From a virus: a stretch of DNA of 64,000 nucleotides. Positions within the stretch are counted from its first letter, which is position 1. Each line of letters opens with the position of its first letter. The notes below the pieces were generated by a model. The model worked only from the letters and a program-made list of their open reading frames with translations, made no database searches and was not told the DNA's origin. Below are positions 7,465 through 24,339 of this stretch, in pieces. A program made the position numbers and the translations under genes. The stretch lies in the IMG/VR virus record IMGVR_UViG_3300035670_000049, positions 56,337-120,336 of that record. One strand, written 5' to 3'.

Positions 7465-7509
7465 AAAGGGGCTAGTTAATCCAAGGGCAAGGATTGGCTA
7501 GCCCTTTTT
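7465..7509 (+). terminator. Intrinsic terminator
   Basis: GGGCTAG-TTAATCC/GGATTGG-CTAGCCC long stem with G-U pairs, followed by T-run. Confidence 0.75.
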
Positions 7510-8737: not shown

Positions 8738-8766
8738 TGGACAACAACAATTTTTTGTGCTATACT
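8738..8766 (+). promoter_or_regulatory. Sigma70-type promoter
   Basis: TGGACA-17 bp-TATACT with TG extension. Confidence 0.75.
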
Positions 8767-9069: not shown

Positions 9070-9236
9070 ATAAATATACCCGATGTAGATGTACCAAATG
9101 TGCGTGTAATATGACTATTCTTTCATGGTCAACGACAAATAAGGAGGGTCTATGTTCTTTCTGCTCTAAGGATTTACACTACAAAGGTCCACACTTTACA
9201 GGAAAGAAAGATGGCATTAGCGACCGCACCCAATAA
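9063..9236 (+). CDS. 57-aa Zn-ribbon protein (absent from ORF track)
   Basis: MVNKYTRCRCTKCAC...CSFC...; fills an otherwise empty gap. Confidence 0.5.
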   Translation: MVNKYTRCRCTKCACNMTILSWSTTNKEGLCSFCSKDLHYKGPHFTGKKDGISDRTQ

Positions 9237-10116
9237 GGGTTATTTGCGCTCTACCTTCTTTGCACGGCAAGAGCGTGAAATCGAAATCCTCGATAAACTC
9301 TATGGGTTTATGCCCATTGGAGTCGAACAAGTTTTCAGTGCAGAAAAGTTAGGACAAGCGTTTGGACTTTCTCTGCCAGTAATGTCTAGGTTTGCCTCTG
9401 ATCTTGAAGAGGCGGGCATCCTTTTCCGTCGAATGGAGTATAATGCTCTAATTGATGGTGAAAGGCGTTCAGGAAGAACATTTTTCTGGACGCTAATGGT
9501 TAACAAGGCTGATGCTCATAAAAGACTGATTGCTCTGCAAGAGAAGCAGCAAAAGGATTATAACCATCCTCCTGCTCCGCGAGGCACTTCTCTAAAAAGA
9601 AGGGTGCTGGCAGCAGTAACAACCTATGAAAAATTCGATACTATTGATGAGTTGTTTGTCAAGGTACGACGCGGCTCTGAAAATATTGATCGACATAATC
9701 TAACGCACGTTATGGAATCTCTTGCGCGAGAGGGTAAAATTTCCTTTGAGCGCAAGAGTACAAAAGAGCGAATTCCTTACAATATTCGTTCCACTAAGTA
9801 CAACAAGAAAGACGTGTTCTCTAAGGAACCCGTTACAGTTGAAGAAGTTGTAGCAGACGCTCTTCCAGAATTGCCTGAAGAGTCATATATGCCCCCAACA
9901 ATTAGCGAAGGTTTTCCTCTAATCTTGAAACTCCTTCAGCGCCAAGAATGGCTTGAGAAGGCGGCTAAACTTGCAGAGGAAGCCTCAGAAGAAGATATTG
10001 CTATCATGCTCCAAGAGCGTGCTAGCAAGCCTATGACGGCATTCGAAGCAGAAGCCGTAGCACTTTACAAGGCTTATATGGCTTGTAGAGAGTCTAGACC
10101 TCTAATCTTGGATTAA
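9211..10116 (+). CDS. Protein with probable winged-helix DNA-binding domain(s)
   Basis: SAEKLGQAFGLSLPVMSRFASDLEEAGIL pattern; second possible wHTH near NLTHVMESLAREGKI. Confidence 0.6.
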   Translation: MALATAPNKGYLRSTFFARQEREIEILDKLYGFMPIGVEQVFSAEKLGQAFGLSLPVMSRFASDLEEAGILFRRMEYNALIDGERRSGRTFFWTLMVNKADAHKRLIALQEKQQKDYNHPPAPRGTSLKRRVLAAVTTYEKFDTIDELFVKVRRGSENIDRHNLTHVMESLAREGKISFERKSTKERIPYNIRSTKYNKKDVFSKEPVTVEEVVADALPELPEESYMPPTISEGFPLILKLLQRQEWLEKAAKLAEEASEEDIAIMLQERASKPMTAFEAEAVALYKAYMACRESRPLILD

Positions 10117-10244: not shown

Positions 10245-11045
10245 TTGGAGAAAGGAATGAATGAGAATTTGACCCAAGATCAAGCAGAGAGCATTATCTC
10301 AAAAATCAAGAAATTGATGGCTCTATCTAAGTCATCAAATGAGAATGAGTCTGCTGCTGCTGCTGCTAAGGCGCAGGAATTGCTCCTTAAGTACAATGTG
10401 GAAATGTCTCAAATCAGTAATACTGAAGTAGAGACAAAGCTTCTAAACGAGTTTTTTGAACTCTTTGATAAGAATGAGATTCGTTGGAAGTTGCATCTTG
10501 CACATTCTTGCGCCAAGGCAAATCTCTGTTTTGGTGTATCCTCTGGAAAGGGAATTTACTTCCTAGGTAGGAAGCATAATATCGAAATTGCTCAGTATAT
10601 GTATGAAACTACTGCTAATGACCTAGAAAGAATTGCAGAAGAGAAATGGCAGCAGATTCTACATCTACGTGATCTACAGGCACAATTTCCCCAAGTACAT
10701 TTGTTCTCGGACCCAAGTTTGGAAGTTGTACACGGTAAAACGTGGAAAGCCTCTTTCTATGTAGGGGCTGTTAAAACGATCCGAGAAAGGCTTGAAGAAA
10801 ATCTTAATGAACTAACCATTAATAATGATAATATGATGGCTCTGGTAACGACTGAGAAGCAACAACTAAAAGTTTTTGTGGATCAGCAGTTTCCGCGTCT
10901 TACAAACGGACAGGCGATGCGATACAATTATCGCAATGCGTTTGAATCAGGCCGTAGGGCTGGACAGGACATTCAATTCCGGCGCGGTGTGGGTGCAGGG
11001 GGCTCATATAGCGGCGGAAATCTTTTAGGAGAGGGGAAAAAATAG
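10245..11045 (+). CDS. DUF2786-domain protein (likely start 10257)
   Basis: KIKKLMALS.S.NENESAAAAAKAQELLLKY N-terminal signature. Confidence 0.8.
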   Translation: MEKGMNENLTQDQAESIISKIKKLMALSKSSNENESAAAAAKAQELLLKYNVEMSQISNTEVETKLLNEFFELFDKNEIRWKLHLAHSCAKANLCFGVSSGKGIYFLGRKHNIEIAQYMYETTANDLERIAEEKWQQILHLRDLQAQFPQVHLFSDPSLEVVHGKTWKASFYVGAVKTIRERLEENLNELTINNDNMMALVTTEKQQLKVFVDQQFPRLTNGQAMRYNYRNAFESGRRAGQDIQFRRGVGAGGSYSGGNLLGEGKK

Positions 11046-11374: not shown

Positions 11375-11537
11375 TCATCGGGGCGTCCCTCCCAATTGTC
11401 CCGCTTGTGCGATTGAGAAAGAATTTGATCGTGCAATAAAAATGGAGAGAAAGGTTCTAAGGGTTGCAAAGCCTAGAAACACTCAAAGAGGGAACCCCGG
11501 TAAAGGTGTCAGCGCCGTCAAATTTTCAGGGGTTTAA
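11355..11537 (+). CDS. Possible small protein (CxxC)
   Basis: Short ORF overlapping both neighbours. Confidence 0.4.
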   Translation: MVRHQTNHRGVPPNCPACAIEKEFDRAIKMERKVLRVAKPRNTQRGNPGKGVSAVKFSGV

Positions 11538-11673
11538 ATTAGGCTTTTTTCTCAAACGGTGTAAAAAAGATGGAGGCTATATTGTCTATTTGACGGGCGA
11601 TGACCTACCATATCGGGAGGTTTGCATTGTATTGGAAAATGGAGATACCATTATCCCCATTATAAAAGGATAA
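11464..11673 (+). CDS. Hypothetical protein
   Basis: ORF ending 5 nt before the ruvB-like start. Confidence 0.5.
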   Translation: MQSLETLKEGTPVKVSAPSNFQGFKLGFFLKRCKKDGGYIVYLTGDDLPYREVCIVLENGDTIIPIIKG

Positions 11674-11678
11674 TTCCC

Positions 11679-12518
11679 TTGTCTGCAAATCTGGAGATTT
11701 TTAGTCCCAAAAATTTTGATGAGTACATCGGACAGGATAGGGCAAAGAAAATTGCCAAGGTGATGCTTTCTGCTTCCTCGATGGAGAGAAGGCCCCTACC
11801 AAACATCCTGATTGATGGATCATATGGACTAGGTAAAACCTCTCTTGCGAAAGTTATCTTTAATGAGTTAAAGATTAAGCCCCGCATTATCGATGCATCA
11901 GCGCTTAACAAGATTATCCCACCTATCCTGACTCGTCAGGCTGCGATTATTGACGAGATTCATAACCTTGACCCACAAGTAGCGGACACACTAAATATCC
12001 TGATTGACGAAGGCAAACTTAGTATTATTGGATGCACTACCAATCCGGGTATGCTTCCTGCGCCCTTTAGATCACGATTTAGAAACGTCCATCTTGATCC
12101 TTACACTCAGGACCAGATCAGTAAAATTCTCAGGCTTGCACTTGACCGAAAACTTGTACCGGCACCCGATAGACTAGTCTCAGAGATTTCAAAACGCTCC
12201 AGATTAAATCCCCGCGTTGGATTAAATTATCTGGCGTTTATCTTTGATATAATGACAGTCAGGCATGAAAGCACATTGAGTGAAAGAACAATTAAGGAGG
12301 CGTTTCAAACATTAGGAGTGGATAATAAGGGATTCATTGATCGAGATTATAAGTACATGGAAGCCCTACAGGAAGAACGCCCCGTAGGATTGCAGTATCT
12401 ATCGGCCATGATTGGCGTAGATGCTAAAACTATTGAAACAGAAATTGAACCCTATCTTCTTCAAACTGGGCACATTGATCGAATGCCTAGAGGTAGAATT
12501 AAATTGAAGGAAATTTGA
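11679..12518 (+). CDS. ruvB: RuvB-like Holliday-junction branch-migration AAA+ ATPase
   Basis: P.NFDEYIGQ, Walker A GSYGLGKTS, Walker B IIDEIH, GCTT..GML..P.RSRF, C-terminal PVGL...IEPYLLQ.G.I.R.PRGR; TTG start behind AAAGGA. Confidence 0.92.
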   Translation: MSANLEIFSPKNFDEYIGQDRAKKIAKVMLSASSMERRPLPNILIDGSYGLGKTSLAKVIFNELKIKPRIIDASALNKIIPPILTRQAAIIDEIHNLDPQVADTLNILIDEGKLSIIGCTTNPGMLPAPFRSRFRNVHLDPYTQDQISKILRLALDRKLVPAPDRLVSEISKRSRLNPRVGLNYLAFIFDIMTVRHESTLSERTIKEAFQTLGVDNKGFIDRDYKYMEALQEERPVGLQYLSAMIGVDAKTIETEIEPYLLQTGHIDRMPRGRIKLKEI

Positions 12519-13114
12519 TGACTACTATAATTGAGCGTTCTACATCTAGGGGGGATATGCAAGATAAACTAAGAGCAGCGCTCTTAGCCTATGGATACAA
12601 GGAAATTTATCTTAGTATCGATGATTTAATTGGTAAAACAGGGCTAACTTACTCTCAAATTTATCAAACTCTTTACAGACTACAGAAAATGGGGGAGTTG
12701 GACATTCTGCGGGAGCAGGATGAAAATGGCAGATACAAGGTTTCTGGAGTAAAACTAAACAAATCAGAGCCTTCTGAGGTCATTACTGAGAGAATTCAAG
12801 ATCGAGAAATCACCAAGCAGACTAGCCGGGACTTAAATAAAGTGGCTATCAGTGTTCCACATACACTAGAGTATATCAATCGAAAACTTGCTGTAGAGCG
12901 TGCCAGAGAAGAGGTAGTAAAAGCACATATCGATCCTGATGATGTGATCACGTTTACTCCTGACCCAATGGGAGAAGAGGCAGTTTTCCTGTTCTCCAAA
13001 CTACAGGAAGCCATCGAAATCAACCGGAGCCTTAACTTTGATTTAGAAGCAGAGAAACGAAACGTTGCCTATCTAAAGCAAAGTACGAGGACATTTGATG
13101 ACTCGGGAACCTAA
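12515..13114 (+). CDS. Probable winged-helix protein with C-terminal coiled coil
   Basis: SIDDLIGKTGLTYSQIYQTLYRLQKMGEL; start overlaps ruvB stop. Confidence 0.6.
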   Translation: MMTTIIERSTSRGDMQDKLRAALLAYGYKEIYLSIDDLIGKTGLTYSQIYQTLYRLQKMGELDILREQDENGRYKVSGVKLNKSEPSEVITERIQDREITKQTSRDLNKVAISVPHTLEYINRKLAVERAREEVVKAHIDPDDVITFTPDPMGEEAVFLFSKLQEAIEINRSLNFDLEAEKRNVAYLKQSTRTFDDSGT

Positions 13115-13343
13115 TAAATTCCAGATTCAACTAGTAGATACCACGCATTACCATGAACCCTGTGTTAAATGCGTGGAAGAAATTTTTGCCAAGGATGATC
13201 CAGAACACGTTATTGTATGGCCCGCAGGAAGTCCTGCACCTTGGCACTTCCATACCGTATGCTACGGAGATGTAGTAGCAGGGATGGTTGAATTCTTTAA
13301 AGTCTTTATTATTGAGCAATCTAAAACAAGGATTCTACAATGA
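13095..13343 (+). CDS. Hypothetical protein (HxPCxxC...HxxC)
   Basis: ORF in operon. Confidence 0.55.
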   Translation: MMTREPNKFQIQLVDTTHYHEPCVKCVEEIFAKDDPEHVIVWPAGSPAPWHFHTVCYGDVVAGMVEFFKVFIIEQSKTRILQ

Positions 13344-14698: not shown

Positions 14699-14733
14699 AA
14701 AATATAGGGCAGCATCTCTGCTGCCCTATTTTT
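14699..14733. terminator. Bidirectional intrinsic terminator between convergent arms
   Basis: ATAGGGCAGCA-TCTC-TGCTGCCCTAT 11-bp stem flanked by A-run and T-run. Confidence 0.9.
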
Positions 14734-22374: not shown

Positions 22375-23025
22375 TCAAGGTAACTTGTCCAATTCGGTAT
22401 AGGTAAAGACATTCTGGGCTTGTTGGAGTTTGGCTTCATTAGACACACCTGAGAACAAGATTTGTTCTAACTCACCTAAAGCCTTTTCTTTCTTAATCAA
22501 TTCCTCATGACGAGATTGCTTGATTATTGCCATCGTATCTAACTTTTTCTTTAACCCCTGCGATTGGTACTCATGAGGCATATTCGGGGGATCAACGTGT
22601 AAAAGTATATTTTTCTGAAAGTCTTCCCCGCGTTGATTTAGAAGAACCCAAGCCGTGATCAACCACGTTGGCATCTTGCGATTTTTGTTCTCAGTGACGT
22701 AAGTTCTACTAACAGCATCAATTCTAAGTCCAGATATATGTCCAATTCTTCCTGTGGAGGATGCAATTTTGCTAAAAGATGGATCAGGTCCATCTGCCGC
22801 AACCATACGCTTAGCAATTCCTCTTTCAGAATCCTTCGCTCGTCGTCTAAGTCTTCGTTGGTCGGCTGTAGATTGTGAGGGTTGTCTCCTAGCATTGATT
22901 GCAACCTCTTCCAGTGTACCTATTGCCGTGCATGATCTACATCTTCCCTCCCATACCATTTGCTCTGCTTTACATTTACTACATACAAATTTTCTCTTGC
23001 TATTTACCATTTTACCTGTTGCCAT
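22375..23025 (-). CDS. Hjc-like PD-(D/E)xK nuclease/resolvase with N-terminal RadA-type Zn finger
   Basis: FVCSKCKAEQMVWEGRCRSCTAIGTLEE; then SERGIAKR...IDAVSRTYVTENK (E...D...ExK). Confidence 0.68.
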   Translation of the reverse strand: MATGKMVNSKRKFVCSKCKAEQMVWEGRCRSCTAIGTLEEVAINARRQPSQSTADQRRLRRRAKDSERGIAKRMVAADGPDPSFSKIASSTGRIGHISGLRIDAVSRTYVTENKNRKMPTWLITAWVLLNQRGEDFQKNILLHVDPPNMPHEYQSQGLKKKLDTMAIIKQSRHEELIKKEKALGELEQILFSGVSNEAKLQQAQNVFTYTELDKLP

Positions 23026-23034
23026 ATTTGCCCC

Positions 23035-24339
23035 TTAATAATCTTTAAACTTTACATACTTGGGAAGCCACTTCAAGGTGGCAATTCCTTGCCGACCATT
23101 TCTGTGCTTCTTTACAATAATCTCAATTAAATCGTCATCCGGGGCAAGTCCAGACTGGCCGTAGTAACTATCCCTGTAAAGGAAAAGCACTACATCTGCT
23201 GACTGTTCAATCTCCCCCGATGAACGTAGATCAGATAACTCTGGCCTACGATTAATCTTTTTACCTTCGCTTCTATTTTCTGTTTGACGTGATAGCTGTG
23301 CTAATAGTAATACTGGACAATTAAGTTCTTTACCTAAAGACCTAATCTCCTTTGTCGCATCCCCTAGAGCATCAACTGTAGACTTATTGTTTAGTTTAAT
23401 GATGTGCAAATAGTCAACAACAATTAAACCTAAGTCTCCCCACTCATACTTCTTCTGTCTAGTCACTGACGAGATATAAGATGTAGGAATTTCACTCTTA
23501 TCATCGACGTGAATATTATTAAAGAGGGGTACGAGCCTACTCTCAGCCCTTTCGACGCTCTGCGTGGCTCCTAGACTGCCTAGGAAGGCTCCTGTGCGTA
23601 TATCTTCCAGTGATACTTCTGACTCTGCGGCTAACATCCTTTCAAATATCTGTTCTCTCGTCTGTTCAAGAGAAAAGAAAATGACTGGACGTGTTGCGGC
23701 TACATTACGTGCAACATTAATAGCGAAGGCAGTCTTACCCATGCCCGGTCTTGCAGCCAATACAATTAAGCCCTCTAATCGATGTAACATTAGATCGAGG
23801 GCTTGGAATCCAGAACGCACAGCCTTTGGATCGGCTGCCTTCTTTCCTAAATTTTGAATAAAATCTTTGAACGCTTCTCCGCTAGAGTCAGATGCATTGT
23901 CAAGTATCTTTTGCTGTAGGAACGTAGAAAATCTCTGCTCTAGTTGATGAAGTGCCTCATCAGCATCTACTTCGGGGTCATAACATAGGGCTACGATATC
24001 TCTGCCAAGATCGATTCCTGCTCGTAGCCTAGCCTTGCCCTTAATTGTTTCGGCATAGTATAGAACGTTACTCATGCCGGGTAAAAATTTATTGCTATCT
24101 TCTATGATAGTCTTAAAGTATTCTTTAACATCAGGCTTAAGTTTATCTTCTACCGCAAGGGAGTCGAGGTTATCGACACCAACCTCTTCTATTGTGGAGA
24201 AGATTTCCTTGTGCTGAACCTTAAAGAAATCATCTGCATTGATGATCTGTGAAACTCTTGGAAGCAACATCGGATCAGCCAACGTTGCAACAATAACTGC
24301 TTTTTCAAAGTCTTCATTATAAGGAATAATTACTGACAT
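23035..24339 (-). CDS. dnaB: DnaB-like replicative helicase
   Basis: AARPGMGKT, FFSLEQ, IVVDYL, LAQLSR, DLRSSGEIEQSADVV, KHRNG. Confidence 0.96.
   Translation of the reverse strand: MSVIIPYNEDFEKAVIVATLADPMLLPRVSQIINADDFFKVQHKEIFSTIEEVGVDNLDSLAVEDKLKPDVKEYFKTIIEDSNKFLPGMSNVLYYAETIKGKARLRAGIDLGRDIVALCYDPEVDADEALHQLEQRFSTFLQQKILDNASDSSGEAFKDFIQNLGKKAADPKAVRSGFQALDLMLHRLEGLIVLAARPGMGKTAFAINVARNVAATRPVIFFSLEQTREQIFERMLAAESEVSLEDIRTGAFLGSLGATQSVERAESRLVPLFNNIHVDDKSEIPTSYISSVTRQKKYEWGDLGLIVVDYLHIIKLNNKSTVDALGDATKEIRSLGKELNCPVLLLAQLSRQTENRSEGKKINRRPELSDLRSSGEIEQSADVVLFLYRDSYYGQSGLAPDDDLIEIIVKKHRNGRQGIATLKWLPKYVKFKDY

Follow-up and report, generated by a model that had tools for sequence, protein, structure and literature searches.

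Gene content of the locus

The window analysed here, 64,000 nucleotides long, spans bases 56337-120336 of IMG/VR record IMGVR_UViG_3300035670_000049, a virus genome of 120,336 bp that is complete and has terminal repeats. A rightward operon, bounded by a promoter match at 8738-8766 and a terminator-like hairpin at 14704-14729, contains the gene of a RuvB-like AAA+ ATPase (P0001, the motor) together with four genes that are designated c1, c2, c3 and c9. The features of the locus are as follows.

7465-7508: strong terminator, located 5' of the promoter match.
8738..8766, + strand: sigma-70-like promoter match (10/12, from a consensus scan only), heading the rightward operon.
9211..10116, + strand: c9, a 301-aa double winged-helix protein, its C-terminal half weakly like c3.
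11464..11673, + strand: c1, a 69-aa five-stranded Tudor/SH3/KOW-like barrel, the most conserved neighbour of the motor and its candidate partner or adaptor.
11679..12518, + strand: RuvB-like AAA+ ATPase (P0001), 279 aa, with large ATPase domain, lid and C-terminal winged helix, and without a presensor-1 beta-hairpin.
12515..13114, + strand: c3, 199 aa, a winged helix-turn-helix at the N-terminus and a conserved helical domain at the C-terminus, overlapping the motor stop by 4 nt.
13095..13343, + strand: c2, 82 aa, with an invariant CxxC...FHxxC, probably zinc-binding, frequent 3' of the motor.
14704..14729, no strand assigned: bidirectional terminator-like hairpin closing the operon.

The motor open reading frame (11679-12518, + strand, 279 codons) has a TTG start codon, with AAAGGA 8 nt 5' of it, and begins 5 nt past the stop of c1 (11464-11673). 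The same operon also encodes a protein with DUF2786 and DUF7168 domains (10245-11045, PHROG 421), a homologue of which is found two genes 5' of the motor in another locus (L004).

Identity and fold of the motor protein

P0001 is a RuvB homologue. Pfam identifies RuvB_N (7.9e-19) and RuvB_C (1.6e-15), both above cut-off, and a RuvB lid just below it (24.9 bits versus a cut-off of 27 bits). The closest solved structures are all RuvB proteins (E 9e-43 to 1e-28, approximately 33% identity), and MgsA/RarA is a far weaker match (E 6e-5). An AlphaFold2 model made from a 60-sequence alignment (pLDDT 95.1, pTM 0.89) was matched by Foldseek to the RuvB proteins of T. maritima, T. thermophilus, E. coli and S. 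thermophilus (TM 0.79-0.87, 28-34% identity), with TM 0.86-0.87 for T. maritima; the next folds, those of the clamp loader and MgsA, reach only TM 0.57-0.58. Thus, the three-domain architecture of RuvB is present, as Pfam (the lid being just sub-threshold) and Foldseek both indicate. The preliminary description of this DNA had listed all the RuvB ATPase motifs and the C-terminal winged helix in P0001, and Pfam, Foldseek and residue conservation confirm them. P0001 scores far under the NCBI cut-offs for RuvB equivalogs (NF000868, 182 versus 282 bits; TIGR00635, 168 versus 299 bits). A PHROG label of 'clamp loader' was set aside, as it rests on the shared AAA+ core.

Absence of the presensor-1 hairpin

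The presensor-1 beta-hairpin is the insert that defines the AAA+ superclade of RuvB; together with the preceding helix it forms a hydrophobic dock for RuvA domain III, and through it RuvA tethers the RuvB motor and stimulates hydrolysis (PMC9477746, PMC10272136). In the RuvB of E. coli MG1655, the reference for the alignment, DEIH occupies residues 113-116 and IGATT begins at 158, leaving a gap of 41 residues (117-157) within which the hairpin accounts for 20 (136-155). The corresponding gap in P0001, between DEIH and IGCTT, is exactly 21 residues (96-116), and the hairpin is absent from both the alignment and the AlphaFold2 model, in which a helix (99-110) is followed by a four-residue turn (D110-E-G-K) and the sensor-1 strand (115-120). 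A second deletion relative to E. coli RuvB removes six residues between Walker A and Walker B. The preliminary description had counted 21 residues between the two motifs, had given about 41 for E. coli RuvB and had concluded that the RuvA-binding hairpin was missing; translation of the open reading frame bears out the first figure, alignment with MG1655 RuvB gives 41 for the second, and the comparison of sequence and structure with bacterial RuvB upholds the conclusion, the RuvB fold being kept and the 20-residue hairpin gone.

Distribution and conservation of the hairpin-less family

A protein database search with P0001 returned 4,164 relatives, of which the best 120 were analysed (45-75% identical, 277-349 aa, many of them on contigs of 100-128 kb). 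In every one of these best 120 homologues with motifs scorable by pattern, the spacing from the D of DEIH to the G of GCTT is 26 residues, so the deletion that the preliminary description had proposed to look for in phage homologues is shared by all that can be scored. The same spacing is 46 in all bacterial RuvB proteins sampled, which were drawn from Planctomycetota, a myxobacterial MAG (deposited as Deltaproteobacteria), E. coli, and records filed as phages of Listeria, Staphylococcus, Acinetobacter and Wolbachia. Because the 26-residue spacing is the same throughout the scorable homologues, loss of the hairpin is not attributable to chance or to an assembly defect.

The short, hairpin-less family forms one clade in a maximum-likelihood tree (SH-aLRT 100) and is almost exclusively viral: across 185,579 species genomes a member occurs on a single contig, 14.8 kb in length, which is binned with a Flavobacteriaceae MAG that has a normal RuvB elsewhere. 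Further loci were obtained from IMG/VR (one close relative) and from JGI metagenome contigs (16).

The ATPase residues of the family are strictly conserved. Walker A Gly and Lys, Walker B Asp-Glu, His95, Asp110, the arginine finger R133, and R173, R175 and R179 are invariant or nearly so (n=120); among the catalytic residues, the sensor-2 Arg is invariant in 120/120, and sensor 1 is Thr in 107/120 and Ser in 13/120. The arginine triad of the C-terminal domain, which in RuvB contacts the DNA backbone (PMC10071043, PMC10272136) and whose mutation in P. aeruginosa RuvB abolishes branch migration (PMC10071043), is also conserved: R268 is Arg in 119/120, R271 is Arg or Lys in 115/120, and R273 is Arg in 120/120.

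T. thermophilus RuvB has a second DNA-contact site, formed by R101 beside Walker B and another arginine that is given as R104 in the text and as Arg147 in the legend of the same paper (PMC10272136). These N-tier arginines, after DEIH and after sensor 1, are lost from the short family. Position 96 is Asn in 113/120, Leu in 6/120 and Asp in 1/120, and never Arg; position 122 is Asn or Asp in 100/120; and at positions 99 and 122 the five most frequent residues, together accounting for at least 110/120, do not include Arg. Thus, the ATPase engine and the C-terminal DNA grip are evidently under strong selection, and the RuvA dock and the N-tier contact are gone. Since the N-tier arginines have been replaced, the grip on DNA, and even the substrate, may differ from those of RuvB.

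Other RuvB modules with altered hairpins

The DEIHN motif of the short family recurs in the viral group L144/L147/L155, whose hairpin is shorter but retained. In the tree, this group, the short family and a second viral hairpin-less clade (L008/L009) form a polytomy, which is compatible with either one or two losses of the hairpin. A search for fused forms among longer homologues yielded only fusions that belong to other RuvB clades, at no more than 34% identity. The RuvB relatives compared suggest that the hairpin decays wherever a RuvB module couples to something other than RuvA.

The second hairpin-less clade, on IMG/VR contigs (L008:5185-6186 and L009:7839-8834), is 31% identical to P0001 and has a spacing of 24; its motors carry a fused N-terminal CxxC...CxxC zinc ribbon, and c1 is not encoded nearby. 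A metagenome contig (L159:4998-5783) has a hairpin-less RuvB-like gene of 261 aa in an unrelated gene context, the hairpin of the RuvB-like protein of L015 is reduced to a stub, and the last ~330 residues of a 1,715-aa protein (L161:831-5978) are a RuvB-like module of AAA+ and winged-helix domains. Several fusion proteins were also encountered: an HNH-RuvB fusion (P0204) without a hairpin (spacing 27), PD-(D/E)XK-RuvB fusions (P0201, P0203, P0205 and P0206) with a shortened insert (spacing 39), and a RuvA-RuvB fusion (P0189) with the full hairpin.

RuvA_C was detected in 1/7 hairpin-bearing viral records versus 0/4 hairpin-less ones, several of these records being incomplete, a contrast too weak to tie a RuvA domain III adaptor to retention of the hairpin. 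In a complete 393-kb phage whose RuvB bears the hairpin (L180, G006:C1:91891-92013), a 188-aa open reading frame matches RuvA_C (domain III); this phage has no RuvA_N match, and the RuvA_C open reading frame is not adjacent to ruvB.

Conserved neighbours of the motor gene

The neighbourhood of the motor gene was surveyed by clustering open reading frames over 26 loci and then searching all loci with HMMs. A gene for c1 is directly upstream of the motor in 17 of the 18 distinct loci with upstream DNA. In the sole exception (L127) the sequence ahead of the motor extends for only ~270 nt, and in L118 the two genes are separated by one other. At the motor loci c1 is 65-80 aa long, and in most of them it stops 5-57 codons ahead of the first conserved motif of the motor, so the two genes abut or overlap. 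Fusion of c1 to the motor was found in none of the 120 homologues. By HMM, c1 was found neither at the loci of the second hairpin-less clade nor at hairpin-bearing viral loci.

A word-index search for c1 found nothing; when 1.84 billion representatives were searched exhaustively with a profile, 65 clusters emerged, the members of which are free-standing proteins of 51-121 aa except for one borderline match of 733 aa. Reverse look-up of the contigs of distant members again revealed short RuvB-like genes alongside. The model of c1 has a pLDDT of 86, and its matches to Tudor, KOW and SH3 folds are generic (Z 6-7). c1 may be regarded as a candidate partner of the motor; its fold is generic, and the adjacency could reflect co-regulation only.

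The gene at 12515 (c3), which the preliminary description had put forward as a possible partner or loader, does adjoin the motor gene and overlaps its stop, but is downstream of the motor in only about half of the loci (~8/16); the survey of phage homologues that was proposed there identifies upstream c1, not c3, as the near-universal neighbour. The c2 gene is likewise 3' of the motor in about half of the loci. The matches of c3 to the PHROG 'replication initiation O-like' (E 0.0085) and to structural neighbours of HTH_36/DnaD_N type in the ESM Atlas (TM <0.5) are weak, as is its alignment with the C-terminal half of c9 (hhalign 49%, E 1.8e-4). In L005 a c9 homologue takes the place of c3 directly 3' of the motor.

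A cryptic RuvA among these neighbours was ruled out by profile-profile comparison with a 7-sequence RuvA alignment, which gave hhalign-type probabilities of 0.06% for c1, 0.4% for c2 and 0.07% for c3.

Another contig (L178:3001-3919) has a distant c1-like gene (E 5.8e-5) with a c3 homologue (hhalign 99.1%) directly after it and no RuvB-like gene in between, an arrangement which suggests that c1 and c3 belong together. Around the module there are also proteins of 100-200 aa with the pattern NGF.H.R..W...C.LGQ..NLG (cluster c4), often in two or three tandem copies; they occur near the motor in L003, L005, L006, L007, L118, L122, L124, L128 and L130, and no family match was found for them.

Recombination and replication genes of the phage

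No match to RuvA_N or RuvA_C was detected by profile search in the window or in the whole 120,336-bp genome, nor in a complete relative (G001); the earlier statement that the window contains no ruvA thus extends to the complete genome. RuvC and RecA also had no match in the whole genome, and with neither a RecA-type recombinase nor RuvC the classical recombination pathway is not evident. The genome encodes DnaB (23035-24339 of the window), a DnaG-type primase, family A DNA polymerase (PolA), ribonucleotide reductase and exonucleases, and these replication genes are located in other operons, on the strand opposite to the motor gene. An ATPase of the IstB_IS21/DnaC family (PF01695) was not matched anywhere in the genome, and the lone DnaC/IstB-related match of P0001 is to PHROG 50, which covers the P-loop only.

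A search for a close cultured relative found none: the DNA search was without match, the terminase had a single match at 23%, and tblastn with the motor recovered only hairpin-bearing RuvB genes at <38% identity, with ruvA alongside in both annotated records that were inspected.

An open reading frame on the reverse strand of the window (22375-23025, -) had been assigned as an Hjc-type nuclease; that assignment was not confirmed, as PHROGs gave no match and Pfam found just a rubredoxin-type zinc ribbon, below threshold, at residues 13-40.

Predicted function of the module

Comparative genomics favours, at a probability of about 0.5, the prediction that P0001 is a working DNA motor that does without RuvA and is directed by phage proteins to intermediates of phage replication or recombination. 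It would be an ATPase of RuvB descent that assembles into rings and travels along double-stranded DNA with no need of RuvA. Its ATP-hydrolysis machinery is kept whole, as is the arginine hairpin of its C-terminal winged helix, which would grip the DNA backbone, and the hairpin for docking and activation by RuvA has been lost together with the N-tier DNA-contact arginines. What is conserved points to an active ATPase with a grip on duplex DNA, and speaks against a decaying gene or a mere poison. With the dock lost, RuvA absent and a small upstream gene near-obligate, targeting and activation may have passed to adjacent phage proteins, which would contact the motor: c1 nearly always, and often c3 or c9, and c2. 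The substrate would probably be the branched DNA of the phage itself, that is, the forks or junctions of recombination-dependent replication; given the ancestry of P0001 in RuvB, a role in migrating junctions or forks fits.

An independent motor with a different loader had been one of the two interpretations offered in the preliminary description. Its first part agrees with the comparative evidence, namely the fixed deletion, the conserved ATPase and DNA-contact residues, the lack of RuvA and the conserved neighbours, but the loader envisaged, c3, is found in only about half of the loci.

An alternative with an appreciable minority chance is that P0001 acts as an ATP switch in the initiation of replication rather than as a translocase; with c3 or c9 at the origin, its task would be remodelling of the DNA or loading of the phage DnaB. 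The phage encodes DnaB, PolA and a DnaG-type primase without any loader of the DnaC/IstB type, and the motor gene is located between winged-helix proteins with 'replication initiation O-like' and HTH_36/DnaD_N-type signals, although those of c3 are weak (E 0.0085; TM <0.5) and the replication genes are in other operons on the opposite strand. Deletion of the hairpin creates a topology like that of clamp loaders, RarA and AAA+ initiators, the spacing from Walker B to sensor 1 being that of RarA; the PHROG matches of P0001 are to clamp-loader families, and the N-tier pore arginines are lost. Against such a switch, the C-terminal winged helix specific to RuvB is kept with its DNA-gripping arginines (two of them essentially invariant, the third Arg or Lys in 115/120), which argues for a ring around duplex DNA. 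To our knowledge there is no RuvB-derived helicase loader.

A more specific arrangement can be proposed, speculatively: c1, the hairpin-less RuvB and c3 or c9 could together constitute a previously unknown RuvA-free DNA-remodelling machine, in which c1 would replace RuvA domain III in docking and activation, on another surface of the ring, and the winged-helix protein would pick the DNA site, either the phage origin or stalled forks, the motor then possibly serving as a RuvB-derived remodeller of origins or loader of DnaB.

It is improbable that P0001 still uses the RuvA and RuvC of the host, by way of another surface or at high concentration, so as to raise the capacity for branch migration during infection. 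Other phage records do have a hairpin-bearing RuvB without a RuvA_N match, presumably relying on the host, and the model of P0001 keeps the helix that in RuvB leads into the hairpin and contributes to the composite RuvA interface (PMC9477746); however, all RuvA-RuvB structures have the hairpin as their principal docking element (PMC9477746, PMC10272136), the hairpin has been cleanly excised and never regained across the clade, and P0001 scores far below the NCBI RuvB equivalog (182 versus 282 bits). The other interpretation of the preliminary description, a dominant-negative poison that would block host RuvABC by co-assembly with host RuvB or by competition for junctions, is disfavoured and very improbable: loss of RuvA docking would indeed make mixed rings defective, but an inhibitor has no need of the catalytic and DNA-contact residues that are, respectively, all and for the most part strictly conserved, co-assembly is doubtful at ~30% identity to bacterial RuvB, and the conserved partner genes would be left unexplained.

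The loading, the stoichiometry and the ATPase cycle of RuvB are all explained through the binding of RuvA domain III to the presensor-1 hairpin. A large viral clade has removed exactly that dock and has kept the engine and the DNA grip, a natural experiment on the bare RuvB motor that informs how motors of this type are re-aimed. What is new here is the near-universal presence of the upstream Tudor/SH3-like protein c1 beside a hairpin-less phage RuvB; a full-text literature search found no published description of a hairpin-less phage RuvB or of its link to c1. If c1 or c3 is a new adaptor, it would represent a second, independent solution for loading and activating the RuvB ring, and an unrecognised step of replication or recombination in phages that are widespread in soil and freshwater.

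Comparison with known systems

A precedent comes from the RuvB of Mycoplasma pneumoniae, which has helicase activity independent of RuvA (PMC3364216), but unlike P0001 it is cellular and is encoded together with a ruvA gene. P0001 has no PF01695 match that would place it among the DnaC/IstB helicase loaders. RarA/MgsA/WRNIP1 and the clamp loaders resemble P0001 in having no presensor-1 insert, and the spacing in RarA is likewise 26 residues; however, they are much weaker matches (TM 0.57) and possess neither the lid nor the C-terminal winged helix of RuvB, and P0001 falls outside that group, its C-terminal domain being RuvB_C and its match E 6e-5 as against 1e-43 for RuvB.

Bacterial RuvB (PDB 1IN4, 1HQC, 1IXS, 7PBL series and 8EFV) has the three-domain fold in common with P0001 (TM 0.86-0.87, 28-34% identity), and both possess Walker A and B, sensor 1, the arginine finger, sensor 2 and the C-terminal RxPRGR DNA-binding hairpin. 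Unlike bacterial RuvB, P0001 is without the 20-residue presensor-1 hairpin and without six residues between Walker A and B, and has Asn or Asp in place of the arginines that follow DEIH and GATT. The genome that encodes it is without RuvA and RuvC, and its gene is linked to that of a Tudor/SH3-like protein instead of to ruvA.
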